Positions 3,478-39,646 of a DNA stretch of 64,000 nucleotides are shown in pieces (position 1 is the first letter of the stretch; each line of letters begins with the position of its first letter). The notes under the pieces were generated by a model that saw nothing but the letters and a program-made list of their open reading frames with translations, was not told the DNA's origin and searched no databases. This DNA comes from Vicinamibacterales bacterium (GTDB lineage: Bacteria > Acidobacteriota > Vicinamibacteria > Vicinamibacterales > UBA8438): positions 2,299,699 to 2,363,698 of the forward strand of contig OZ252227.1 of NCBI GenBank assembly GCA_965249175.1, in the 5' to 3' direction. Position numbers and translations under genes: made by a program.

Positions 3478-3693
3478 ATGGCGCTGACCGTCGGCTCCCG
3501 CCTCGGCCATTACGACGTGACCGACCTCATCGGCGAGGGGGGAATGGGGCAGGTCTATCGCGCCACCGACACCCAACTGGGCCGCGACGTCGCGCTGAAG
3601 ATTCTCCCCGACGCCTTCGCCGCTGACCCGGACCGGCTCGCCCGGTTCCAGCGGGAAGCGCAGGTGCTGGCCACATGCGCTGCTGAATCCTGA
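3478..3693 (+). pseudogene. Ser/Thr kinase N-lobe fragment K1
   Basis: [27 protein letters not shown], then unrelated sequence and stop. Confidence 0.9.
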
Positions 3694-3738
3694 AGACACG
3701 GAAACTCAGACTCTCGGGTGTCGACATTCCACCCGAGG

Positions 3739-5174
3739 GAGATATAACCAGAAGTTGTGGATCGGCAGTCTGAAGAAGGCGGCGTATCCTTTCGCGTGAG
3801 CAACGCGAAAACTCCGGCTGGCAGGCCGGTGAAAGGAGCCGCCACCCATGCTGAAGGTACTCGACAACGATGGAGCAGACAACGAAGTTCCGCCGGAAGA
3901 GCGCGGTGCGCAGACGGTGGACGAGCTGGCCCGGGAGGGAGCCCGGCGGATGTTGATGACGGCCCTGGCGGTGGAGGTCGGGCAGTACATCGAGGCCCAC
4001 GGCGAGGAGCGGGACGCGCGGGGACGCCGGCTGGTCGTTCGGAATGGTCGGGCCCAGGCGCGGAAGGTGACGTGCGGGGCAGGTACGCTCGAGGTGCATG
4101 CTCCTCGGGTGAACGACAAAAGGGTCAACGGCGCGGGCCAGCGGGAGCGGTTCACGAGTCGGATCTTGCCCCCCTACATGCGTCGCTCGCCCAAGGTGGC
4201 GGAGGTGCTGCCGATCCTCTATCTGCGCGGTCTGTCGACGGGCGATTTCCGCGAAGCGCTGCCGGTGCTATTGGGGGATGACGCGGCCGGCCTCAGCGCG
4301 ACCAACATCGCGCGCCTCACGGCGGTGTGGGAAGAGGACTACCGGCGGTTCCGCCAGCGGGACCTGGCCGATCGTGACTACGTGTACGTGTGGGTCGACG
4401 GCATCCATTTCAACATCCGGCTCGAGGACGATCGGCTCTGTACGCTGGTGATCCATCGGCGTACGGCCCGATGGGACCAAGAAGCTCGTGGCCCTGGAGG
4501 ACGGCTACCGCGAGAGCACCGACAGCTGGGCGACGGTGCTGCGGGACCTCCAGCGGCGCGGCATGCGGGCCCCGGTGGGGGCGGTCGGCGACGGCGCCCT
4601 GGGTTTCTGGGCGGCCGTGCGCGACGTGTGGCCGGACACGCGAGAGCTCCGCGACTGGTGTCACAAGATGGGCAACGTGCTCGACAAATTGCCAAAGCGA
4701 TTACAGCCGAAAGCGAAGCGCGCGCTCCGCGAGATCATGTACGCCGAGACGCGGGCACACGCCGAGGAGGCCATGGACGTCTTCATCGCCGAGTACGAGG
4801 CCAAGTACCCGAAGGCGGCGGCGTGCCTGGACGCAGACCGCGACCGCCTCCTCACGCACTTTGCCCTGCCAGCTGAGCATTGGCAGCACGTGCGCACGAG
4901 CAACGTCATCGAGTCGCCATTCGCCACGGTCCGACTCCGGCAGCGCGTGACCAAAGGCGCGGGCTCGCGCACCAAGGGCCTGTTGATGGCCTACAAGCTG
5001 CTCGAGATGGCACAGCAGCGCTGGCGTCGGCTCAATGGCGCGCATCTGCTGCCACTCGTCCGCGCCGGCGTGACGTTCATTGACGGGGTACAGCAGGAGC
5101 GAAACAACGAGGGAGATCGGAAGGTGGCCGCCTGATCACGCTGATGACCGATCCACAACATTTGACAATATCTC
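3739..5174 (+). mobile_element. IS256 type A copy 2 (frameshifted transposase)
   Basis: Ends GAGATATAACC../..GACAATATCTC; 9-bp TCCACCCGA duplication with extra GG on the left. Confidence 0.95.
3848..5135 (+). pseudogene. IS256 transposase with +1 C at about 4453
   Basis: GTGATCCATC versus GTGATCATC in intact copies. Confidence 0.9.
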
Positions 5175-5340
5175 TCCACCCGACGTCTGCGGGCGGAACG
5201 GCCTGCCCGGCATCTGTGCGTTCGTTCGAGAGGACGGGTTCTGTCTGGCTCCGCCCAAGACCTGGCCGAAACGGTTTCGGACACTTCGACAGAGACCTCC
5301 ACCGCTGGCAAGCATCGGGCGGCCAGCGAAGCCCTCGCCC

Positions 5341-5378
5341 GCCGCATGAACGTCCCCGAGACGACGGCTCCGAGCTAG
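5341..5378 (+). repeat. 3' tail remnant of a kinase-TolB-TPR gene (RMNVPETTAPS*)
   Basis: Similar to RRMNFPETAATA* at 30763-30801. Confidence 0.55.
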
Positions 5379-5393
5379 CCCAGCGGCCTCCCC

Positions 5394-5493
5394 GTCTCTC
5401 CTGTCCGCTCGTTGCACACCGCCTGCCCCTCCGAGGCCGTGATCAGCCCCGGGCGGTGGCATAATCAACCCCAGTTCCTATCCCACAGGAGGG
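5394..5493 (+). repeat. ~100-bp promoter/RBS repeat, copy 2
   Basis: Aligns with 3050-3153. Confidence 0.75.
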
Positions 5494-5676
5494 ACCCGGC
5501 GCTGATCTGTGTCAGCGTGCGGCCAGACTCGTTCACGCGACGCGGCACACGGGGTCTCATGCGGGCAGGACTCGCGAAGACGGTGTCTCGATCCCAGACG
5601 GCATTGAAGCCCACCATGACCACGACGCGCCGGCCGGGGCACCGCCTTGAAAACTTTGAGCATGCGGACGTGGTCG

Positions 5677-7105
5677 GAGGGTGAGCTAATCTTAGTTGAA
5701 AATTGAAACGGCTCCAGACCCTGTGGTGTGATGACGTTGCAAAAGACGGACATCACCCCACGAGAGAGAGGAGCCACGATGAGTGTCCTACGTGCTGTCA
5801 GGAAGCGCAAGAAAGTTCGCAAGCTGGGCTCGGTCAACATCATTCACCGCGAGGCCTACGCGGATCTGGAGCTGGACGCGAAGGTGGAGCTGATCCGCTC
5901 GCTGGTGCCCCTGGGCCTGATGCATGTGCAGGAGTTGCTCGACCAGGAGGTGACGGCGCTGGCGAGCGAGCGCTACGTCCGGAAGGACGCGTCGGTCGGT
6001 GGACGCCGTCACGGCAGTAACCCTGGGACGGTGGGTCTCGCGGGGCAGCGCGTGCCGATTCGCGTGCCCCGGATTCGTCGCCTCGCAGGGAGCGAGATTC
6101 CGCTGCGGTCGTATGCGGCGTTGCATGACGACCGCGAGGTGGACGACGCGCTGCTGCGACGGGTGCTCTACGGGATCTCGTGCCGCAACTACGCGGCGGC
6201 CGCGGCGGCGATTCCCGGGGCGATCGGGCTGTCGAGTTCGACGGTGTCCCGGGGGTTCATCCAGGCCAGCGCGGCGCAGCTACGGGCGTTCCAGGAGCGG
6301 GACCTATCCGATGAGGACGTGGTGGCCGTGTTCCTGGACGGCAAGACGTTCGCTGACGCGACGATGGTCATCGCGCTAGGCATCACGCTGTCTGGGGAGA
6401 AACGCTTCCTGGGCTTCGTCGAAACGGACACGGAGAACGCGACGGTGCTCACACCGTTCCTGCGGTCGTTGGTCGAGCGGGGCCTCGACCTCTCCCAGGG
6501 TGTGCTGGTCATCCTCGATGGCGGCAAGGGGCTCCGCACGGCCGTCCGGAAGGCCTTCCGGGGCCGGGCCCTGGTCCAACGGTGCCAGTGGCACAAGCGC
6601 GAGAACGTGGTGAGCTACCTGGCCAAGCACGAGCAGGCGGTGTGGCGTCAGCGTCTCCAGCGAGCGTACAACCGGCCGGACTACGACGAGGCCCTCGGTG
6701 CGCTCGAGACGCTCCACGGCGAGTTGGACGAGCGGAACCAGTCGGCGGCTGACAGCTTGGCGGAAGGCCTGGACGAAACCCTGACGTGACATCGATTGGG
6801 CGTGTACGGAGTGCTGGGCCGGTCGCTGAAGACGACGAACTGTCTGGAGTCGGTCAATGCGCTGGTCGAGGAACGCTGCGCGAAGGTAGATCACTGGCAG
6901 AGCTCGAGCCAACGCCACCGCTGGCTGGCGACCGCCCTCCTGGACATCGAACCGCGCTTACGAAGGGTGAGGGGCTACCGCCACCTTCCCACGCTTCGGG
7001 CCGCATTGAAGCGAGAACTGAAGATCGACACGACGACGTCGAAGAAGCAGGCCGCGTAAGCCATCGGGAGCCGTGGAGAGTTTCAACTAAGAATGGGCTT
7101 GACTC
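5677..7105 (+). mobile_element. IS256-family element type B, copy 1
   Basis: IRs ..CTTAGTTGAAA/TTTCAACTAAG.., 8-bp duplication CGTGGTCG. Confidence 0.95.
5728..7059 (+). pseudogene. IS256 type B transposase with premature TGA at 6787-6789
   Basis: TTA (Leu) at the same position in the intact copy 47412-48743. Confidence 0.9.
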
Positions 7106-8435: not shown

Positions 8436-8599
8436 CTGCAGCTATGGCCCTGACCGTCGGCTCCCGCCTCGGCCATTACGACGTCACTGCCCTCATCGGC
8501 GAGGGCGGGATGGGCCAGGTCTATCGCGCCACCGACACGCAACTGGGCCGCGACGTCGCGCTGAAGATCCTTCTATGAAGCGGCTTGTCAAGTCACCTC

Positions 8600-8958
8600 G
8601 TTGTTCGTCGAAGCTCTCACGCTCTCCGATACACCCTCCAGTGAGCGCGCCGTCCCCGCACCCAGCTGGGGGGCGCGCGCGAACGGGTCGGCAGCTCGGT
8701 GTGCTGTCCACGGGCCCGGATTTCGGTCGCTAGGGTAACAACCTGCTTAGACGCGCCGGGCTGAAGCCGCGAGGTGCGTCATCCTTCTATTCGCGCTCGA
8801 CAAGGGCGATCTCTGATCGCCGGCGCAAGAGACGATCCGAATGGGGGGCGGCACCATCTCCCTGCCGGCCTCGCGTGCGACCAAGGATCTTCACGTGCTC
8901 ACCCACCAACCCTGCAACCCCGGACCTCACTCAGTGGCCCGACCGCACCACCAAGGAC
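8600..8958 (-). ncRNA. Predicted bridge/seek RNA of the IS1111 element (ends approximate)
   Basis: Guide-like matches to target (8884-8893, 8858-8866) and donor (8784-8790) inside stem-internal-loop structures. Confidence 0.75.
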
Positions 8959-9999
8959 TTACCCGCTCATCCCGTGCGGCACTGGGACCCCGACGCGGCG
9001 CCCGTCATAGACCGTCTGGTCCCGCCACATCGCAAACAGGATCCCCGCCAACCGGCGCGCGACGGCCACGGTGGCGATGCGCCGGCCGCGGCGCGTGGCC
9101 AGTTGCTCGGCCCAGGCGCGCAGGCCCGCGGCCTCCGCCCGGCGAGACCGGAGCGCGGCCCACGCGGCTTGCACCAGCAACCAGCGCATGCGCGGATTGC
9201 CCGCCTTCGTAATGTGGCCCCGACGGTGGCGGTCCGCAGAGCTGTCCTCGCTGGGCACCAAGCCGAGAAAGCTCTCGACCTGGTGGGCCCCGCCAAAGCG
9301 CCCCGCCTCATCCAGCGTCGCGACGAATGCCGTCGCGATGAGGGGGCCTACCCCGGGGGCGGTAGTCAACCGCTGTACCACCGGGTTGGCCGCCGCCGTC
9401 TCGATGACCTGGGCATCGGCCACGGCGAGCTGCGCGGTCAACTGTTCCCACAGGGCGAGCAGCGGCTGGAGCGCCGCCTGTAACTCGTCGGGGAGCTCCA
9501 GCTCCGTCACATACGTACCGAATCGGTCGGCATCCCCGGCCCGGACGCGCAGTCCCTCCCGCCGCACCAGCGCCCGCACCAAGGCGATGGTGCGCCCGCG
9601 GGTCCGCCCGAGCAGGTCGCGCACCCGGAGCTGGCGCCGCACCCGATGCTGGGCGGCCGACACGCGATGCGCCGGGCGATAGGAACCGAGTCGGGCCGCC
9701 TCGGCCAGCATCCGCGCATCGCGCCGATCCGTCTTCACACGCCGGCGCCGTTCGGGATACATCGGGGCGTAGTTCGGATCCGCCACGATGACCTCGTGGC
9801 CGCACTGCTCGATCGTCTGCGCCACCCATTCGCTTTCCGTCGTCGCCTCGAGGAGCACCCGGGCACACGGTCGGCTCCCGAACATCTTCGTGAACTGCTG
9901 CCGCGTACTCTGAATCCGTCGTTCGATGATCTCGCCCTCGGACGTGAGGATGCAGATTTGACTTTCTCTCTTATGGACGTCGATGCCAATATGCTCCAT
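8959..9999 (-). CDS. IS110 DEDD recombinase/transposase
   Basis: HIGIDVHK, VLLEA, KTDRRDA, PGVG, GLVPSEDSS, ITKAGN, VAVARRL. Confidence 0.95.
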   Translation of the reverse strand: MEHIGIDVHKRESQICILTSEGEIIERRIQSTRQQFTKMFGSRPCARVLLEATTESEWVAQTIEQCGHEVIVADPNYAPMYPERRRRVKTDRRDARMLAEAARLGSYRPAHRVSAAQHRVRRQLRVRDLLGRTRGRTIALVRALVRREGLRVRAGDADRFGTYVTELELPDELQAALQPLLALWEQLTAQLAVADAQVIETAAANPVVQRLTTAPGVGPLIATAFVATLDEAGRFGGAHQVESFLGLVPSEDSSADRHRRGHITKAGNPRMRWLLVQAAWAALRSRRAEAAGLRAWAEQLATRRGRRIATVAVARRLAGILFAMWRDQTVYDGRRVGVPVPHGMSG

Positions 10000-10197
10000 G
10001 GCTGGTCTCCCTCTGTGCGCCTTGAGCGCGTTTGAAAAATGTGGAGCGCAAGCTACCACGTGGGGACGACCAGCCGCTTCATCCTATCTCCCCGACGCCT
10101 TCGCGGCTGATCCGGGATCGGCTCGTCCGGTTCGGGCGGGAAGCGCAGGTTCGGGAGTCTGTGTCCTGACAAGAACCCGACCCGTCCCGAGTGCGAA

Positions 10198-10491: not shown

Positions 10492-10692
10492 GTGCCACTG
10501 ACGCCCGGCGTACGGCTCGGAGCGTACGAAGTCACCGCCAAAATCGGCAGCGGCGGGATGGGGGAGGTGTACCAGGCGCTGGACACCAACCTGGATCGGG
10601 ATGTCGCGCTGAAAGTCCTGCCTGATGCCTTCACGTCGGATCCCGATCGCCTAGCCCGTTTCGAGCGGGAAGCCAAGGTCCTCGCCCGCTGA
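10492..10692 (+). pseudogene. Ser/Thr kinase N-lobe fragment K4
   Basis: TACAAT -10 and AGGAGG RBS; IGSGGMGEVY..VALKVLPDAF..RFEREAKVLAR*. Confidence 0.9.
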
Positions 10693-10697
10693 CCATC

Positions 10698-11597
10698 ATG
10701 TCCACAGCGCCGGATCCCGATACCGAGACGCCCACCGACGTGGGGCCCCGCCTCCGTGCCGCGCGGGAGGCAAAGCAGCTCTCACTGGGCCAGATCGCGG
10801 ACGCCACCAAGATCTTGATTGGTACGCTCGAAGCTGTTGAAACGCATGACGTTGCCCAGCTGCCTGGGGGCATCTTCACGCGCGGGGTCGTCCGCGCCTA
10901 CGCGGCCGAGGTCGGGCTCGACCCCGAACACACGCTGCGCGACTTCATGGCACAGGTGCCGTCCGAGTCCACCGCGGCCGCGACCTACGGGGACTGGCAG
11001 GAGGACGACGGCGGCCTGTTGGTGAGCCTGCCTCGGATCGATGAACCGTCGGGCGCGTTGGCTATTCTTAAACGGTGGCCCACGCTGTGGCTGGTCAGTG
11101 TGGCGGTAGTCGCCGTGTTGTTCTCTCTTTGGACGTTGTACCCACGGCCGTCCGCGGGGGAAGCACCACTGGCTCTGGTCAGCGACGCGGACCCCGCTCT
11201 ATCGTCCCGTCCGACCACCCCGTTGGGAGGCGACCCACTCCTCCCGAGCGAACCGGTTCCGCGGCTGACGGATCCCGGGACACCCGCAGCCCCGGCGTCG
11301 GTCGTGGCGTCAGCCGTGACCGCCCCGGGACCGCTCGCCACCCTCACCATCGTGTTGCGCGCGAGCCGCGAGTGCTGGGTGTCGCTGCGCGTCGATGGGC
11401 AGTTGGTCGTGCGTCATGTCATGCAGCCCGACGATAGCGAAACCCATCGGGCGGACGAGGAGATTGTGTTGAGCGTGGGTGACGCCGGGGCACTTGCGTT
11501 CTCGATCAACCAGCAGAACGGCCGACCACTCGGAGCGTCGGGCGAGGTGAAGACCGTGAGGATCACCCCCGACAACTACCGTGACTACGTGCGATGA
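10698..11597 (+). CDS. RodZ-like protein (HTH_25, TM, DUF4115)
   Basis: VGPRLRAAREAKQLSL..LPGGIFTRGVVRAYA; TM; CWVSLRVDG..VGDAGAL..PLGASGEV. Confidence 0.85.
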   Translation: MSTAPDPDTETPTDVGPRLRAAREAKQLSLGQIADATKILIGTLEAVETHDVAQLPGGIFTRGVVRAYAAEVGLDPEHTLRDFMAQVPSESTAAATYGDWQEDDGGLLVSLPRIDEPSGALAILKRWPTLWLVSVAVVAVLFSLWTLYPRPSAGEAPLALVSDADPALSSRPTTPLGGDPLLPSEPVPRLTDPGTPAAPASVVASAVTAPGPLATLTIVLRASRECWVSLRVDGQLVVRHVMQPDDSETHRADEEIVLSVGDAGALAFSINQQNGRPLGASGEVKTVRITPDNYRDYVR

Positions 11598-11608
11598 GCG
11601 AGCGTTCC

Positions 11609-11659
11609 AAAGCCCGTGACACCCGCCTGGACCGCACCATCGCCATCAAGGTGCTGCCC
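11609..11659 (+). repeat. Ser/Thr kinase internal fragment K5
   Basis: KARDTRLDRTIAIKVLP. Confidence 0.75.
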
Positions 11660-11782
11660 ACCCTTCGGAGCGCGAATGGCTAACGCCTCGGCCACAAGAC
11701 AACGCGTTGGTCCACGGCGGGCGCACCTGCAACCCACCAGTTGGGAAACCGCTCGACTTACCGGCGTCCTGGCTGGGTCTAG

Positions 11783-13250
11783 CAGCCCGTGGTGAAAGTC
11801 CCTATTAGGGATCGACACGATCGATCCCGCGTACTACACTGTCGCGCATGGCGATGGGCAAACGACGACGCCGGGCGCGGCAAGCATCGATGTGGGTTCC
11901 CACCAGCGACCTGCCTCGCAGTGCGGCGCATCCGTTCTATCAGCGATTGAATCGGATCCTCGATGACACGGGCTTCGACGCGTTCGTCGAGGCGCAATGC
12001 GCGCCGTTCTACGCGGACGGCGTCGGTCGTCCGAGTCTGGCGCCGGGGCGGTACTTCCGGCTGCTGATGCTCGGCTACTTCGAAGGGCTGGACTCGGAGC
12101 GGGCGATCGCGTGGCGGGCGGCCGATTCGCTGAGCATCCGGCAGTTTCTGGACCTCGAGCTGCACGAGGCGCCGCCGGATCACTCGACGCTGTCGCGCAC
12201 CCGGCGCCTGATCGACGTCGAGACCCATCAAGCGGTGTTCACGTGGGTGCTGCAGCAACTGGCCGACGCCCAGCTCGTGACCGGGCGGACCCTCGGCATC
12301 GATGCCACGACGTTGGAAGCGAACGCCGCATTGCGGAGTATCGTGCGCCGGGACACGGGCGAAGGCTACGAGGCGTTTCTGACCGGGCTGGCCGAGGCGT
12401 CCGGCATCGTCACGCCGACCCGCGCTGAGCTGGCCCGGTTCGACCGGAAACGGAAGAAGAAAGGCTCCAACGACGACTGGACGCATCCGCAGGATCCGGA
12501 CGCGAAGATCACGAAGCTGAAGGACGGGCGCACGCACTTGGCGCACACCGCGGAGCATGCGGTGGACCTGGAGACGGGGGCCATCGTCGGCGTCACCGTG
12601 CAGGATGCCGACGACGGCGATACGACGACGATGGTCGAGACCCTGATCACGGCGGCCGACCACGTCGAAGCCGTCCTGCCGGCCGGCGCCGGTATCGCCG
12701 AGGTCGTCGGGGACAAGGGGTATCACAGTAACGAGACGATGGTGGCGTTCGCCGCGCTCGGCGTGCGCAGTTATGTTTCGGAGCCGGACCGCGGGCGACG
12801 CAACTGGACAGGCAAGGCGGCGGCGCGCGACGCCGTGTACGCGAACCGTCGGCGCATTCGGGGCACGCGTGGGCAACGGCTGCTGCGACGGCGGGGCGAG
12901 TTGCTCGAACGCCCCAACGCGCATCTCTACGAGACCGGGCGGCTGCGCCGGGTGCATCTGCGTGGGCATCCCAACATCCTCAAGCGCGTGCTTGTGCACG
13001 TCTGCGGGTTCAATCTTGGGCTCCTCATGCGGCAGCTGACGGGCGTCGGCACGCCGCGGAGCCTCCAAGGCCGCGCGGTCGCCGTCTTCGAGGCCTTGAT
13101 CGCTGATCTTGGCCGCCTCTGGACCCTCGTATCGCCCGCGTGGGCGCGAGATGCGCAAGATCTGCCGCACTCGTCGTTTCTCGACCTTATGACACGGTGT
13201 CACGAACACATGCCCCTCGACCTACGAAAGGGCGTTTTCACCACGGGCTG
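11783..13250 (+). mobile_element. IS1182/IS5-like element with CTAG target
   Basis: IR CAGCCCGTGGTGAAA/TTTCACCACGGGCTG, CTAG duplicated. Confidence 0.92.
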
Positions 13251-13254
13251 CTAG
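11848..13254 (+). CDS. DDE transposase (DUF772 N-terminus)
   Basis: GRPSLAP..SERAIAWRAADSLS..PDHSTLSRTR..IDATT..GDKGY. Confidence 0.92.
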   Translation: MAMGKRRRRARQASMWVPTSDLPRSAAHPFYQRLNRILDDTGFDAFVEAQCAPFYADGVGRPSLAPGRYFRLLMLGYFEGLDSERAIAWRAADSLSIRQFLDLELHEAPPDHSTLSRTRRLIDVETHQAVFTWVLQQLADAQLVTGRTLGIDATTLEANAALRSIVRRDTGEGYEAFLTGLAEASGIVTPTRAELARFDRKRKKKGSNDDWTHPQDPDAKITKLKDGRTHLAHTAEHAVDLETGAIVGVTVQDADDGDTTTMVETLITAADHVEAVLPAGAGIAEVVGDKGYHSNETMVAFAALGVRSYVSEPDRGRRNWTGKAAARDAVYANRRRIRGTRGQRLLRRRGELLERPNAHLYETGRLRRVHLRGHPNILKRVLVHVCGFNLGLLMRQLTGVGTPRSLQGRAVAVFEALIADLGRLWTLVSPAWARDAQDLPHSSFLDLMTRCHEHMPLDLRKGVFTTGC

Positions 13255-24374: not shown

Positions 24375-25754
24375 TTACGCGGTCGTCCGGCGATACGGCG
24401 GCGGTGCCGGCGCCTCCTCTTGCGGCGTTTTGTGCCGTACCGCCAGCCCCCGAAACGCGTCTGCAGCGTGGCTCGACCAGTCGTGCAGCGGCGTGTCCGT
24501 GAACTCCTGCAACCGTTCGATGAACGTCTTCCGGTAGACCGTGAGCGCGTCGAGGCCCGCTCGGCATTTCTCCTCGTCAAACCAGCACCGCGGGAGCAGC
24601 AGGCGCACCGCGTCAATGCCGTCGTCGACACCGATGTCGCGCACGATCCTGAACGCGATCCCGTGACTCCGCGCCGTCTCGAGGCGGCTCTTCCCGGTGC
24701 CGAGCTCCCGGACGCGGATATCGTGCGGTGCCCAGTGCTCGCCGTAGACGTAGCCCTTGTCCCTGAGCACCTGCACGTAGTGTGGGAGGCCCTCGCCGCT
24801 GTGCTCGTAGTAGTCGATCAGGCGGACCGCGCCCGACGCGAGCGACTGGCTGAACCAGATCGCCGTGGCGTCGCCGATCCCCAACAAGTCCCAGTCCGTA
24901 TCGACGGGCAACGCCGGGTCGTAGGGCACCCGCGTGATCCGCCCGTCCTTCCGGGCCGCCGCGAGCGGCGCCGTGTAGTAGGCGCCCTTGATGGCCGCGT
25001 CGGTCGAGAGGAACCACTCCTGGTCGAACTCTTCCTGGGTCATTAAGTGTTTGGTGATCAGGCCCCGGTCATCTTGCATCGCCTGGCGTAGCATCAGCGT
25101 GGCAGCGTCGGCTTCCGTGTCGAGGGACTCGTCGATGTTCTGCCAGACGGTGAACGCCGTCGGGTCGTCCTTCAGCGCCTCGTGCGTGCGATAGAGCTGG
25201 TTCCGGCCCTTGATGGTGCCGGCGAAGATGGCGTAGCCCAGGTGGTCAGCCAGCGCCTTCGAGATGACCTCCGAGAAGACGTTCGGTGGGTGCATCCCGT
25301 ATTCGTCGAATGAGACGCCCGAGAACGCGGGACCACGAAGCCGGTCGGGCTTGTCGGCGCCGAAGAGCTGCACCTTGCTCCCGTTCGGGTAGTCGATCCT
25401 CAGCTCGGCTTCGTTGAACCGGACGCCAGGGATCGGCGTCGCGAAGTACTTGGCCATGTCCCATGTCGTGAGCTTCGCCTGGCGGTATGTCGGGAGGACA
25501 TGGGCGTAGAACCGGCCGCGGAGCAGTTCCGTCAGGTGCGCGACGGTCACGTCGGGCTTGAGATGGCGGAGGCGCGTCCGCTCCCAGGTGTCGTCGGTGG
25601 CGGCCCGTTGGTGATGGTTGATGATCGCGGTCGTCTTGCCGGCCCGGCGGTGCAGGACCAGACACGACCAGCGGTCGAGCGAGGCGTGGAACGGCTGCGC
25701 CCACTGGCGGGGCTTGTACGGAATGCGCACTCGAGTGGCGGTCGCTACTCCCAT
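24375..25754 (-). CDS. Phage terminase large subunit
   Basis: Walker A LHRRAGKT, LRG..Walker B VSFDE, coupling GTIKG, nuclease DWDL..GDA and HDWSSHAADAFR. Confidence 0.9.
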   Translation of the reverse strand: MGVATATRVRIPYKPRQWAQPFHASLDRWSCLVLHRRAGKTTAIINHHQRAATDDTWERTRLRHLKPDVTVAHLTELLRGRFYAHVLPTYRQAKLTTWDMAKYFATPIPGVRFNEAELRIDYPNGSKVQLFGADKPDRLRGPAFSGVSFDEYGMHPPNVFSEVISKALADHLGYAIFAGTIKGRNQLYRTHEALKDDPTAFTVWQNIDESLDTEADAATLMLRQAMQDDRGLITKHLMTQEEFDQEWFLSTDAAIKGAYYTAPLAAARKDGRITRVPYDPALPVDTDWDLLGIGDATAIWFSQSLASGAVRLIDYYEHSGEGLPHYVQVLRDKGYVYGEHWAPHDIRVRELGTGKSRLETARSHGIAFRIVRDIGVDDGIDAVRLLLPRCWFDEEKCRAGLDALTVYRKTFIERLQEFTDTPLHDWSSHAADAFRGLAVRHKTPQEEAPAPPPYRRTTA

Positions 25755-25975
25755 GAGAGCGTGATGCCCCCGGCGTGCTCGACCAGTTCCTTCGGTTTGC
25801 CGTAGGCGTAGGCCCACAGCATCGCCTCGACGGCCGGCGAGAGCTCCCCGGCCATCGCACGGGCCATCAGGTTCTTGCGGTAGGTGGAGTTGTCGACGAT
25901 GGCCGCACAGATGGCCTTCGCCTCGGCGGTGGCTCTATTTGGGACACCCTTTTTCCGACCGGGGCCCGCGCCCAC
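25745..25975 (-). pseudogene. Terminase small-subunit-like fragment
   Basis: GRKKGVPNRAT..AYAYGKPKELVEH..ITLSW directly upstream of terL. Confidence 0.65.
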
Positions 25976-27389: not shown

Positions 27390-27442
27390 ACTGAGTCATC
27401 CGGATTGCCCGTCGGGGCGCACTACAATGACCCCCGTCACCG

Positions 27443-27817
27443 ATGTCCCTTGCCCCCGGCGCCCAGCTCGGCCCCTATTCGATCACCGCTGAAATCGGCC
27501 GCGGTGGGATGGGCGTCGTGTTCTTGGCCCAAGACCCCCGCTTGAAGCGCCAGGTCGCGATCAAGCTCCTGCCACCCGACCTGACCCGCGACGAGACGGC
27601 CAAGCAGCGGTTCCTGCAGGAAGCCCAAGCGGCGTCGGCGCTGGATCATCCCAACATTTGCACGATCCACGAGATCAACGAGACAACCGACGGGCAGCTC
27701 TACCTCGTGATGGCCCACTACGCGGGGGAGACGCTCAAGGAGCGGATCGCGGGAGGGCCGTTGGCACTGGATGACGCCATCGACCGCCGCCGGAGTAGGC
27801 TCCTAGGATCCCCATGA
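27443..27817 (+). pseudogene. Ser/Thr kinase N-terminal fragment K6
   Basis: IGRGGMGVVF, VAIKLLP, EAQAASALDHPNI; stops before HRD. Confidence 0.9.
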
Positions 27818-30720
27818 TCATCGCTGAGGCCATCATGCTTCTTTCGGTGGCGACGGCCGGGCCGGCCGAGCGTGGCCCGGAGCCTCACCCCATCGCGTCA
27901 GGACCGGTCCGCGCTGCCCAGGCGGCGCCAGCAGCCGCCGCGGACGACAGCGTCGCCATTATCGCCTTCTCCAACATCTCTCGGATCGCGGAGGACGACT
28001 GGATCGGCACAGGCATCGCCGAAGCCCTCACCGTCGAGCTCGGGCGTGCCAACGACCTGTCTGTTTTGGGGCGTCAGGCGGTCTCGGGCGCGTTGGAGAA
28101 CGTGAGCAGCGCAGACGGCATTGCTGGAGCGACAGCGCTTGCCGCAGGCCGCCTCCTCGGCGTGCAGTGGGTCCTCAGTGGCGGCTACCAGCGGGTGGGC
28201 GACCAGATGCGCATCACGGCGCGGGTCGTGGACGTGGCGACCGCCACCGAGGTGCACACGGCGATCGTCGACGGCGCGCTGGCGGAGCTGTTCGCCTTAC
28301 AGGACCGGCTCGCTGCCGACCTGAGACGCGGGCTGTCGGGCGCGGGTGGTGCAATCGCGACGTCGGGGACGGCTCGCACACCAACCAGCAGCGAGGCGGT
28401 CCCTCCCACCGTTGATCCTCCCGGACCGGCACCGGACGGCGTCGCGACGGCGTCTGGCCGCAGCGGCTTCACGGCGGCGCCCGTCGGCTTCATCGATGGC
28501 CCTGCACCGCCAGTGGCGCCGGAGACGATGACACGCGATGCCGCCGGACGCGTCACGGTGCGGGCGGTCCGGCTCACCGAACCGTTCCGCCTCGACGGCG
28601 CGCTCGACGAAAGCGTCTACGAGACGGTGCCGCCCGTCGGCGGCTTCCTTCAGCAGTTGCCCGATGAGGGGGCGCCCACAACCGAACGGACCGAGGCGTG
28701 GGTCTTCTACGACGACAGCACCGTGTATGTCGGCGCGCGCTTGTGGGACTCGGCGCCCGAGTCACAGTGGATCGCCAATGAGATGGTGCGCGATTCGTTC
28801 CAGCTCGTGAACAACGACTACTTCAGCGTCGCGTTCGACACGTTCTACGACCGGCGCAACGGCGTGTCCTTCATGGTCAACCCGATTGGCGGCTTCATGG
28901 ACTACGAGATCTCCGACGAAGGGTTCTCCAACGCCGACTGGAACCCCATCTGGGACGTGAGGACGGGCCGATTCGACGGGGGCTGGACCGTCGAGATGGA
29001 AATCCCCTTCAAGTCCCTCCGTTATCGGCCGGGCGCATCGCAGATCTGGGGATTCCAGCTCGGGCGGGCGATTCGCTGGAAGAACGAACAGACCTATCTG
29101 ACGCCGGTGCCGGCCTCCGCCGGGCCAGGCGAGTTCCGTCTGTCCGTGGCTGGCACCCTGACCGGCGTGGAAGTCCAGCCGGGCAACAGGACGCTGGAGG
29201 TCAAGCCATACGCGATCGGCTCGCTCGCCACCGACGTCAACGCCGTCCCGCGCATCTCGAACGACGGTGACGGCGACTTTGGATTCGACGTCAAGTATGG
29301 GGTCACCCAGAACCTGACGGCGGACTTCACCTACAACACCGATTTCGCCCAAGTCGAAGTCGACCAGCAGCAAGTGAACCTGACGCGGTTCAGTCTCTTC
29401 TTCCCCGAGAAGCGCGAGTTCTTCCTCGAAGGACAAGGCATCTTCGACTTCGGGCGCGGCGTCACCATCATCGGCGGGGGTTCCGGCGGGGTCCAGCGCG
29501 GCGGGGGCGGCTTCTTCGGAGGTGGCGACGTGCCCACGCTCTTTTTCAGCCGGCGGATCGGGCTGGAAAGCGGACAGGCCGTCCCGATTCTGGGGGGCGG
29601 CCGGCTCACCGGCAAGGCCGGCAAGTTCAGCATCGGGGCCGTAAACATTCAGACGGACGACGCCCCGAGCGTCGGCGCCCTGTCGACCAACTTTACCGTC
29701 CTCCGGGTCAAACGCGACATCCTGCGCCGTAGCCGTATCGGCGGCATCTTCACCGGCCGGTCGGTGTCGACGGTGGGCGCAGGATCGAACGAGGTCTACG
29801 GCCTTGACGCGCTCTTTTCGTTCTACGACAACGTGAACTTCAACGGCTACTATGCCCGGACGCGCACGCCCGGATTGGACGGCGACGACGCGAGCTACCA
29901 GGGAAGGTTCAACTACACCGGCGACCGCTACGGCTTCGAGCTCGACCACCTGCGGGTCGGCGACCACTTCAACCCGGAAATCGGATTCCTCCGTCGTGAC
30001 GACTTCCGGCGCACCTTCACGACGGCGCGGTTCAGCCCTCGGCCTGCCTCGATTCGCGCGGTGCGCCAGTTTACGTGGGAAGCCAGCCTCGACTACATAC
30101 AGAACGGCGCCGGGCTAATCGAGACGCGAATCGCGCAGGCCCGGTTCGAAACGGAATTCGAGAACACTGATCGGTTCGGCGTCGATGTCCAGCAGAGCTA
30201 CGAGCTCCTCGTCCAGCCCTTCGCGATCGCGACCGACGTCACGATTCCGGTCGGCGCCTACGACTTCGAGGACTTCTTCGTGTCTTATTCCATGGGGGCC
30301 CAACGGCGGGTGTCAGGCAACCTCTCGTTCCAGCGCGGCGAGTTCTTCGGCGGGCACATCACGGCGGTCGGATTTGGCGGCGGATTTGGAGGCGGCCGGG
30401 TCGAGGTGACACGGCAGTTCTCAATCGAGCCGGGCCTGTCCATCAATCGGATCGATCTCCCGCAAGGCAACTTCACGGCGACGCTGGTCCAGAGTCGTGT
30501 GACCTACACCCTGACCCCGCGGATGTTCGTCGGTGGTTTGCTGCAATACAACAACAGCACTGATTCGTTCAGCACCAACGTCAGGCTGCGGTGGGAATAT
30601 CAGCCGGGGAGCGAACTGTTCGTCGTTTACAATGACCAGCGCGATACGTCACTTCGCGGCACGCCGTTCCTCGAAAACCGCGCCTTTATTGTCAAGTTCA
30701 CGCGGCTGTTTCGGTTCTGA
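27814..30720 (+). CDS. TolB-N/CsgG-like domain + CBM9-like + DUF5916 outer-membrane protein
   Basis: SVAIIAFSN..DWIGTGIAEAL..GGYQRVGDQMRITAR; GWTVEMEIPFKSLRY; NTDFAQVEVD..NLTRFSLFFPEKREFFLEG; C-terminal F. Confidence 0.85.
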   Translation: MIIAEAIMLLSVATAGPAERGPEPHPIASGPVRAAQAAPAAAADDSVAIIAFSNISRIAEDDWIGTGIAEALTVELGRANDLSVLGRQAVSGALENVSSADGIAGATALAAGRLLGVQWVLSGGYQRVGDQMRITARVVDVATATEVHTAIVDGALAELFALQDRLAADLRRGLSGAGGAIATSGTARTPTSSEAVPPTVDPPGPAPDGVATASGRSGFTAAPVGFIDGPAPPVAPETMTRDAAGRVTVRAVRLTEPFRLDGALDESVYETVPPVGGFLQQLPDEGAPTTERTEAWVFYDDSTVYVGARLWDSAPESQWIANEMVRDSFQLVNNDYFSVAFDTFYDRRNGVSFMVNPIGGFMDYEISDEGFSNADWNPIWDVRTGRFDGGWTVEMEIPFKSLRYRPGASQIWGFQLGRAIRWKNEQTYLTPVPASAGPGEFRLSVAGTLTGVEVQPGNRTLEVKPYAIGSLATDVNAVPRISNDGDGDFGFDVKYGVTQNLTADFTYNTDFAQVEVDQQQVNLTRFSLFFPEKREFFLEGQGIFDFGRGVTIIGGGSGGVQRGGGGFFGGGDVPTLFFSRRIGLESGQAVPILGGGRLTGKAGKFSIGAVNIQTDDAPSVGALSTNFTVLRVKRDILRRSRIGGIFTGRSVSTVGAGSNEVYGLDALFSFYDNVNFNGYYARTRTPGLDGDDASYQGRFNYTGDRYGFELDHLRVGDHFNPEIGFLRRDDFRRTFTTARFSPRPASIRAVRQFTWEASLDYIQNGAGLIETRIAQARFETEFENTDRFGVDVQQSYELLVQPFAIATDVTIPVGAYDFEDFFVSYSMGAQRRVSGNLSFQRGEFFGGHITAVGFGGGFGGGRVEVTRQFSIEPGLSINRIDLPQGNFTATLVQSRVTYTLTPRMFVGGLLQYNNSTDSFSTNVRLRWEYQPGSELFVVYNDQRDTSLRGTPFLENRAFIVKFTRLFRF

Positions 30721-30726
30721 CGCGTG

Positions 30727-30801
30727 CCCCCTCCGCGCCGACCCCCGCTTCCGGGCCCTCCTCCGCCGCATGAACTTCCCGGAGACGGCGGCAACGGCTA
30801 G
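30727..30801 (+). repeat. 3' tail remnant of a kinase-TolB-TPR gene
   Basis: PLRADPRFRALLRRMNFPETAATA, the typical C-terminus of these proteins. Confidence 0.75.
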
Positions 30802-31348
30802 CAGCCCGTGGTGAAAGTCTTGAATTAGATCGATCGCCAGAATCGATCGCGGTTCCTATACTCGGCGTATGGCGATGGGTACGAAACGGAAGCGCAACCG
30901 TCAACGGTCCATGTGGATCGCGACAGCGGATCTCCCGCAGAGCGCCGGGCATCCCTTCTATGAGCGGCTGAATCGTGTACTGGACGACGCGGGCTTCGAC
31001 ACCTTCGTCGAGGCGCAGTGCACGAAGTTCTATGCCGAGGGCCTCGGTCGCCCCAGTGTGACGCCGGGCCGCTGTTTCCGGTTGCTGCTGCTCGGCTACT
31101 TCGAAGGGCTGGACTCGGAGCGGGCGATCGCGTGGCGTGCCGCTGATTCGCTGAGTATTCGGGACTTCTTGGACTTTGATCTGCATGAGGCCCCGCCGGA
31201 TCATTCGACGCTGTCGCGCACGCGCCGACTGATTGACGTCGAAACGCATCAGGCGGTCTTCACCTGGGTGTTGCAGCGACTGGCGGACGCTGACCTCGTG
31301 CACGGGCGCACGATTGGGATTGATGCGACGACGCTCGAGGCCAACTGA
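30802..31348 (+). mobile_element. Truncated IS1182/IS5-like element (relative of 11783-13250); CDS fragment 30869-31348
   Basis: CTAG plus CAGCCCGTGGTGAAAGTC left end; protein ends at IDATTLEAN. Confidence 0.9.
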
Positions 31349-34030: not shown

Positions 34031-34047
34031 CTAAGGAGGACGACTCA

Positions 34048-39081: not shown

Positions 39082-39329
39082 GGAGCAACGCGTGAATCGG
39101 CGTGTGCGGGCACGGGTGTGGTCTGTCACGGGGAGTTTTACCCTTTACCATGCGTGGCGCCGTCACGCCGACAGCCGCGTAGTTGAGCGCCACGTGCGCT
39201 GCGGGACGGGCCTGCGGCGGCGTTCCACGCTCATCCGCGGGCATCGAATCCCCTATTGGAGGGACGAGGGCTCCGGAGCCCGACGGGGGCGGTCGGACCT
39301 GGGCGGCACTACAATGACCCCCGTCACCG

Positions 39330-39646
39330 ATGTCCCTTGCCCCCGGCGCCCAGCTCGGCCCCTATTCGATCACCGCTGAAATCGGCCGCGGTGGGATGGG
39401 CGTCGTGTTCTTGGCCCAAGACCCCCGCTTGAAGCGCCAGGTCGCGATCAAGCTCCTGCCACCCGACCTGACCCGCGACGAGACGGCCAAGCAGCGGTTC
39501 CTGCAGGAAGCCCAAGCGGCGTCGGCGCTGGATCATCCCAACATTTGCACGATCCACGAGATCAACGAGACAACCGACGGGCAGCTCTACCTCGTGATGG
39601 CCCACTACGCGGGGGAGACGCTCAAGGAGCGGATCGGGCGTGGGCC
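39330..39646 (+). pseudogene. Ser/Thr kinase N-terminal fragment K8 (duplicate of K6)
   Basis: 39306-39636 reads identical to 27419-27749. Confidence 0.9.

Follow-up and report, generated by a model that had tools for sequence, protein, structure and literature searches.

A DUF5916-family gene between the ends of a kinase gene in a Vicinamibacterales genome: one copy of an inherited, multi-copy chimera

We analyzed a 64,000-nucleotide (nt) stretch of a Vicinamibacterales genome (the window; G000:C1:2299699–2363698, where G000 is the genome under study, a single contig of 6.64 Mb) in which a complete DUF5916-family gene lies between the two ends of a Hanks-type Ser/Thr kinase gene. We refer to the kinase head that begins at window position 27443 as K6, to the DUF5916-family gene as the cargo, and to the kinase head and tail flanking it as the shell. 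A preliminary description of the locus, made from the sequence alone, had proposed an outer-membrane gene inside a hollowed kinase, and this layout is borne out: the head stop overlaps the cargo start in an ATGA (27814–27817), the cargo runs through 968 codons, and a kinase tail follows its stop (Table 1).

Table 1. Features of the K6 locus and of the second head copy, in window positions (ORF, open reading frame; IS, insertion sequence)
Feature	Position	Strand	Basis
Short conserved stretch upstream of kinase genes	27415..27442	+	98.8% identity with the second head copy (K7) begins at 27415
K6 head ORF, 124 codons	27443..27817	+	ORF list, Pkinase match, alignment with seven other kinase heads
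Cargo's own leader	27793..27813	+	Also in shell-less paralogs, partly in a copy from another genus
Cargo: intact 968-aa gene, DUF5916-family putative outer-membrane protein	27814..30720	+	ORF list, Pfam match
Cargo residues ~45–178, alpha/beta domain of the LpoB/PelC/TolB_N/FlgO kind	27946..28347	+	Fold and kinase middle-domain homology
Cargo residues ~250–430, CBM9-like beta-sandwich	28561..29103	+	Sub-cut-off Pfam score and Foldseek
Cargo residues ~462–968, DUF5916, predicted all-beta	29197..30717	+	Pfam (65 bits) and structure model
Kinase tail, last ~23 codons of the kinase subfamily	30728..30797	+	Alignment to intact kinase
IS5-family left end and transposase N-terminus (DUF772)	30798..31348	+	DUF772 in ORF 30869–31348
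K7: second copy of the K6 head, no cargo	39301..39646	+	98.8% identity over 346 nt

Codons 1 to ~115 of the K6 head form the N-lobe of a Hanks-type kinase, with glycine loop and VAIK lysine present (Pkinase, PF00069; expectation value E 1.5e-12, residues 12–103 on profile positions 1–90 of 263). Aligned with the other heads, its kinase likeness stops at about 27792, near residue 115, and the last ~9 codons of the ORF are out-of-frame read-through into the cargo leader. The catalytic loop (HRD..N) and the DFG/activation segment, both present in paralogs, are missing; judged by these motifs, the head is a kinase remnant and the 124-amino-acid (aa) "kinase" is not a functional one. A TACAAT hexamer at 27423–27428, 14 nt 5′ of the head ATG, is a possible −10 box.

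An intact kinase of 737 aa, encoded at 1658819 in G000, supplies the counterpart with matching 5′ and 3′ ends that the preliminary description had proposed looking for. Its residues 1–110 match 27443–27784 at 83% identity and its residues 714–735 match 30728–30793 at 91%, with no match between head and tail. Both ends belong to one kinase subfamily and stand in matching orientation and order. Kinase residues ~116–711—catalytic loop, activation segment, TolB_N-like domain, and tetratricopeptide repeats (TPRs)—are gone at K6, and it is by this loss that the shell, so close at its ends to Hanks-type kinases with a TolB_N-like middle domain and C-terminal TPRs, is a remnant rather than a kinase. 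The break falls in the kinase domain, outside the domain common to kinases and cargo, and the insert hardly exceeds the gene, adding about 21–30 nt of leader and <10 nt of trailer to the ORF. The idea that the cargo replaced a kinase interior is upheld in these respects; as a local, single event it is not, the junctions being shared with other loci.

The tail (a PLRADPRF...NFP stretch) lies directly after the cargo stop, as had been described, with 7 nt rather than 6 before its first codon. A 1-nt loss near its end leaves the old kinase stop codon out of frame, and an IS5-family element is inserted at the CTAG of that former stop. The element shows the features of its family (DUF772 and a DDE transposase, terminal repeats, a CTAG-type target); its end sequence recurs many times in G000 adjoining TAG, an intact copy with DUF772 and DDE_Tnp_1 lies at 11848–13254, and the copy at K6 is broken further on by an IS1595-type element. 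The next matching end on the right, at 34034, abuts unrelated DNA, and the original kinase 3′ flank is therefore lost.

The kinase family around this locus is large: G000 holds 144 matches to the K6 head and ~20 tail-like matches, the latter preceded by various partial kinases, and many kinase remnants are internally deleted. Kinase genes of the K6 subfamily have a common 3′ flank of ~100 nt (for example, G000 1661030–1661140), whose end resembles the pre-start stretch with its TACAAT/CATAAT hexamer (compare 27415–27442 and 39301–39329). This likeness between flanks suggests tandem kinase arrays with a common intergenic promoter region.

The cargo protein scores 62.1 bits against DUF5916 (PF19313) over its whole length and 65.2 bits over residues 461–968 (cut-off 22.6), with the best stretch aligning only the first ~86 of 572 profile positions. 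Pfam scores of its N-terminal part stay below the cut-offs (FlgO, 19.0 bits against 22.6; TolB_N, 14.5 against 22.4), and the fold of the alpha/beta domain agrees with PelC/LpoB/TolB_N-like periplasmic domains: Foldseek returns LpoB (4q6l; E 2.1e-4, template-modeling score TM 0.59) and PelC (E 2.2e-3), matches of these two kinds spanning E 2e-4 to 3e-3 where the predicted local distance difference test (pLDDT) of the model is 65–85. Cargo residues ~36–185 are also homologous to the middle domain of G000 kinase ORFs (22–39% identity, E 1.2e-12 to 8e-4), among them the intact 737-aa kinase (26%, E 5.9e-6), which confirms the earlier observation that a TolB-N-like domain is common to the cargo and to kinase middles. 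Unlike its periplasmic counterparts, the domain is here fused to a putative barrel protein, not part of a lipoprotein. The following module scores 17.4 bits against CBM9_1 (PF06452), below the 23.4 cut-off, and matches 7nwn in Foldseek (E 7.5e-6, TM 0.63). In the DUF5916 part we count ~24 predicted strands, at a pLDDT of only 40–75, and its barrel matches (LptD, FimD, SusC) are weak, with E about 0.01 and TM below 0.3.

The AlphaFold model behind these comparisons was built from 40 homologs and is usable for residues ~45–178 and ~250–430. It suggests that the C-terminal half is probably a large outer-membrane barrel, and the protein as a whole probably such a barrel joined to a periplasmic PelC/LpoB-like domain and a carbohydrate-binding-like module, a makeup from which we predict a role in glycan export or uptake. 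Against eight other copies the ratio of nonsynonymous to synonymous divergence (dN/dS) of the cargo is 0.20–0.27, falling to 0.13–0.16 in DUF5916, at dS 0.57–0.91; by this measure the cargo is a working gene under purifying selection. NCBIfam has no family for it, a literature search for DUF5916 found no paper mentioning the family, and broader searches returned nothing relevant.

Both junctions of K6 recur elsewhere. A second chimera in G000, p3530 (3530037–3533226, minus strand), is 86% identical to K6 over 448 nt through the head–cargo junction and keeps a shortened kinase tail and the conserved kinase 3′ flank. We compared these with cargo loci (L011–L018 and L097) of a sister-species genome, G001, and of a further relative, G002. 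By tblastn, the head precedes the cargo at five of the eight loci first examined (head residues 1–110 at L011, 1–96 at L012, 1–48 at L013, 1–111 at L014, and 1–47 at L017) and the tail is found at two (L013, L014); L097 is a sixth head-bearing G001 locus, its cargo cut after residue 94. In a side-by-side comparison, the kinase sequence of K6, p3530, L011, L012, and L014 stops at identical codons (…AID), after which all five share one leader, and the tblastn coordinates of L097 place its break at these codons too. L013 and L017 carry further internal deletions, and a 2-nt loss is common to K6 and L011.

The 3′ junction is shared in the same way. The first bases after the cargo stop are common to K6 and L012–L016, giving one 3′ junction at five sister-species loci; they run into the tail in K6, L013, and L014, and L015 and L016 retain just 13–15 nt. 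A shortened form of the tail is present in L011, L017, and p3530, and the G000 paralog p3124 retains only the kinase 3′ flank. Four loci (K6, p3530, L013, and L014) possess both head and tail. The G000 copies p3043 and p1320 and the one G002 copy examined, L018, are without a shell, and shell-less copies end at different leader points. A distant paralog (G000 ~1.07 Mb) is preceded, at ~230 nt, by a kinase fragment whose breakpoint differs; we did not score this fragment as a shell. Because both breakpoints are common to several loci in two species, the replacement is placed in an ancestor, with K6 as one descendant copy: K6 is one copy of a unit composed of kinase head, DUF5916-family gene, and kinase tail. 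With the same 5′ junction at p3530 and six G001 loci, the locus loses the standing of a one-off, "clearest" case that it had first been given.

An assembly artefact as the source of the chimera is ruled out by contigs from independent public runs that bridge both K6 junctions (X5 record 10, 27722–29205, with 0 differences; X6 record 17, 27717–27842; X6 record 23, 29829–30774). X6, the metagenome of a different study, represents a related strain ~97% identical, with both junctions and with small indels in leader and tail.

The protein itself is ordinary for its family. We scored 8000 candidates in a protein search with the cargo, found 4436 below E 0.001, and examined the best 120: PF19313 is present in all 120, and in 116 the match extends over at least 95% of the cargo, with FlgO (PF17680) in 10, CBM9_1 in 2, and TolB_N (PF04052) in 1. 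The kinase head was not found at 72 of 75 loci from other genomes, each taken with up to 1.5 kb of flank, and the remaining three all coincide with G001 loci already counted. As far as these matches and flanks tell, the LpoB/TolB_N-like + CBM9-like + DUF5916 architecture is an ancestral one, common across Vicinamibacterales in the absence of kinase flanks, and kinase flanks of the cargo appear confined to the genus among the genomes sampled. The suggestion of a new domain fusion, for which the preliminary description had itself called for a survey of the TolB-N plus DUF5916 architecture, is thereby refuted. The cargo shares Pfam family and full-length architecture with the uncharacterised DUF5916/CBM9-like outer-membrane proteins of Acidobacteriota, Gemmatimonadota, and others, and its middle module has a probable CBM9-like fold; it differs from them only in its kinase-remnant setting. 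L019, a copy from another genus, encodes a normal signal peptide, and the leader motif of the cargo recurs ~16 nt upstream of the L019 ATG; G000 itself holds at least 15 long paralogs. One tandem cluster of G000 (1406857–1417185) comprises four shell-less DUF5916 paralogs or fragments of the same clade as the cargo, with normal signal peptides and a GC-rich hairpin-like repeat directly after the stops.

Divergence among the copies is uneven. Over the first 160 cargo codons dS between copies is 0.19–0.48, vs. 0.51–1.25 further on, and identity between K6 and p3530 drops from 95% over the first 150 nt to 57–86% later, values suggesting that these 160 codons were homogenised between copies. The approximately unbiased (AU) test rejects monophyly of the six cargo-attached heads (p 0.0027 with 19 other heads; p 0.0041 with 14, truncated heads dropped); an AU run with K7 included (p 2e-46) is trivial, K7 being a near-copy of the K6 head, and is not relied on. 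Pairwise dN/dS among cargo-attached heads is 0.12–0.24 at dS 0.45–1.0, compared with 0.06–0.15 for intact kinases; remnants drifting since a single old capture should approach 1, and the heads look like sequences that diverged as working kinases. Together, the head, dS, and identity data indicate exchange between the chimera and working kinases, and among cargo 5′ ends. In a quick tree of 26 cargo proteins, all eight shell-bearing copies fall in one supported 16-row clade.

The junction microhomologies, which the preliminary description had proposed inspecting, are present as short patches at both junctions. The 3′ untranslated bases of L019 resemble the kinase tail-coding stretch over ~17 nt, and a 4-nt match lies at the 5′ breakpoint, patches consistent with illegitimate recombination at short similarities.

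We lean, with little more than even confidence, toward one old replacement of a kinase interior, after which the chimera was copied and reshuffled by homologous recombination within the kinase family. The unit would have arisen once, in an ancestor of the genus, when an ordinary LpoB/TolB_N-like + CBM9-like + DUF5916 gene replaced residues ~116–711 of a kinase–TolB_N–TPR gene by illegitimate recombination at short similarity patches, bringing with it about 25–30 nt of leader and a few nt of trailer. The kinase family is huge, with DNA-level conservation of its heads, tails, and outer flanks; homologous recombination would then copy and reshuffle the chimera among kinase genes, and cargo paralogs would recombine among themselves at their 5′ ends. 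Every new chimera copy would cost one kinase gene, and deletions and IS insertions would afterwards erode the shells. Transcription of the cargo may begin in the start region of the kinase gene, with translation coupled through the ATGA overlap; we infer both this expression route and the spread of the unit through kinase homology. A further step, which we offer tentatively and regard as somewhat doubtful, is that the shelled cargo acts as a "paralog-surfing" cassette, the heads, tails, and outer flanks of the kinase family serving as homology arms for gene conversion into further kinases; kinases would be given up for additional copies of a surface protein, and the cassette would have mobility without a mobility gene.

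Among known processes the chimera recalls ectopic gene conversion and homology-facilitated illegitimate recombination, in which flanking homology brings foreign DNA into a locus; cassette systems such as pilE/pilS or displaced Rhs tips are examples. The resemblance lies in a non-homologous insert enclosed by conserved ends that belong to a multi-copy family, and in junctions that are copied unchanged while the arms take the ancestry of different family members. The chimera differs in that it has no expression-site/silent-cassette layout and no sign of programmed switching, and in that its insert is a complete unrelated gene.

Several observations weigh against this account of replacement and spread. 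We found no filled-vs.-empty orthologous locus pair, so that spread into resident kinases is not observed directly. The polyphyly and low dN/dS of the heads could equally reflect gene conversion in which intact kinases overwrite remnant heads, in place of an invasion of kinases by the chimera, and the FastTree of heads had been inspected before the AU test was run. In the 16-row cargo clade, eight shell-less copies, two of them from another genus, are intermixed with the shell-bearing ones and force at least four state changes; the case for a single origin therefore comes from the breakpoints that the copies share and not from this tree. No between-species cargo pair stands at ortholog-level dS (0.47–0.91, vs. 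0.23–0.26 for two flanking G000/G001 ortholog pairs), and the copies are therefore old or much reshuffled. The microhomologies were read against L019, an other-genus copy and not the true donor. A consensus promoter scan found no sigma-70-type site upstream of head or cargo. Finally, the full-length cargo model is poor (mean pLDDT 50.3), which leaves the barrel and the proposed function weakly based.

The search for an empty site covered the flanks of several copies. Those of K6 and p3530 have no colinear place in G001 or G002, and the flanks of G001 loci lead into rearranged G000 DNA. The upstream flank of p3043 was considered and rejected: its 90.5%-identical G001 ortholog extends only to within a few nt of the cargo leader, and the G001 continuation matches G000 ~24 kb further on, which is not a cargo-sized difference.

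The strongest competitor, although we judge it unlikely, keeps the single origin and has the unit copied only as a block, by segmental duplication or IS rearrangement, without any role of the kinase family in its spread and with the mixed heads produced by later gene conversion from intact kinases. It accounts readily for junctions that are identical across copies in an IS-saturated region, for K7 as a recent duplication of the head alone, and for the failure to find an empty-vs.-filled site. Against it, the copies cease to be alike where the kinase gene ends (~30 nt upstream of the head ATG), which is the pattern predicted if kinase sequence is the substrate; the polyphyletic heads and their kinase-like dN/dS despite their divergence also speak against it.

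A second alternative starts from a cargo gene lying between two kinases of a tandem array, with separate deletions having taken the 3′ part from the upstream neighbour and the 5′ part from the downstream neighbour. The arrays suggested by the conserved 3′ flank and its resemblance to the pre-start stretch would provide such a setting, and the many internally deleted kinase remnants of this genome also speak for it. We nevertheless consider it improbable: it needs two independent deletions, one stopping about 30 nt or less from the ORF and the other about 10 nt or less, cargo copies in other genera have no neighbouring kinase within 1.5 kb, and the similarity patches between the native flanks of the cargo and the kinase at both junctions fit recombination between two genes.

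Highly improbable in our view is a site-specific mobile cassette whose dedicated recombinase targets a kinase motif, the identical junctions then marking independent insertions. The unit is gene-sized, and an IS110-type element of G000 does occupy one fixed place in many kinase heads. Yet there is no recombinase and no repeat of its own bordering the unit (no search aimed at attC or an integrase was made), the DNA after the cargo stop is kinase tail, inserting the unit would leave in place the 1.8 kb of kinase interior that is missing, and the shell-less copies do not share one leader endpoint. Least credible of all is a chance juxtaposition of unrelated kinase-pseudogene debris with an ordinary gene in an IS-scrambled region, for which the scattered head-like and tail-like matches and the different fragment near the distant paralog might be cited, and which is already contradicted by breakpoints that recur at several loci in two species, with head and tail together at four.

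The window as a whole is crowded with transposase genes. K7 lies 11.9 kb downstream of K6 and gives way to DNA that holds an rve-type transposase ORF on the opposite strand. The IS5-type end has well over 100 matches in G000, and an IS256-type (Transposase_mut) element at 6000–7105 has >60 copies at 99–100% identity; this is a massive and recent expansion of IS elements, in a genome whose 6.6 Mb is a free-living size. The IS110-type element at 8439–10150 (transposase ORF 8959–10059, minus strand) has ~13 copies that are 98–99% identical from 8439/8444 to ~10150; their first ~120 nt read as kinase codons 1–42, and two copies begin only at 8551/8565. At several sites a kinase body (residues 35–114 onward, in ORFs of 750–920 aa) follows the element, which gives it one fixed place in many heads.

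Other genes of the window also adjoin kinase pieces. At 10492–11800, a RodZ-like gene (HTH_25 and RodZ_C, 10698–11597) starts 18 nt after a kinase head fragment of ~62 codons. Another short piece of kinase comes immediately after the gene, with an IS5-type end beyond it at ~11780; the gene stands between kinase pieces with breakpoints unlike those of K6. At 3478–5680, a head fragment from another kinase subfamily (3478–3732) precedes an IS256-type transposase and a kinase tail fragment at ~5331–5379, and the ~300-nt stretch after this tail fragment also follows a kinase tail in G001. Upstream of K6, a 480-aa ORF at 24375–25975 with a weak match to a terminase large subunit (E 0.0028, below the cut-off) adjoins an rve-type transposase and may be a phage remnant.

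The chimera is inherited and multi-copy around an ordinary family member, and is neither a fresh event nor a new fusion protein. For annotation, the 124-aa "kinase" is to be read as a remnant and the 968-aa gene as an ordinary member of a widespread, uncharacterised outer-membrane family, with no new fusion protein. That family, with many paralogs per genome and a PelC/LpoB-like and CBM9-like front end, may merit study as a putative glycan channel. If spread by way of kinase arms is true, a large paralogous gene family would be a landing pad on which an unrelated gene multiplies without transposase or integrase, and this would help explain the many hollowed kinase genes of the lineage.

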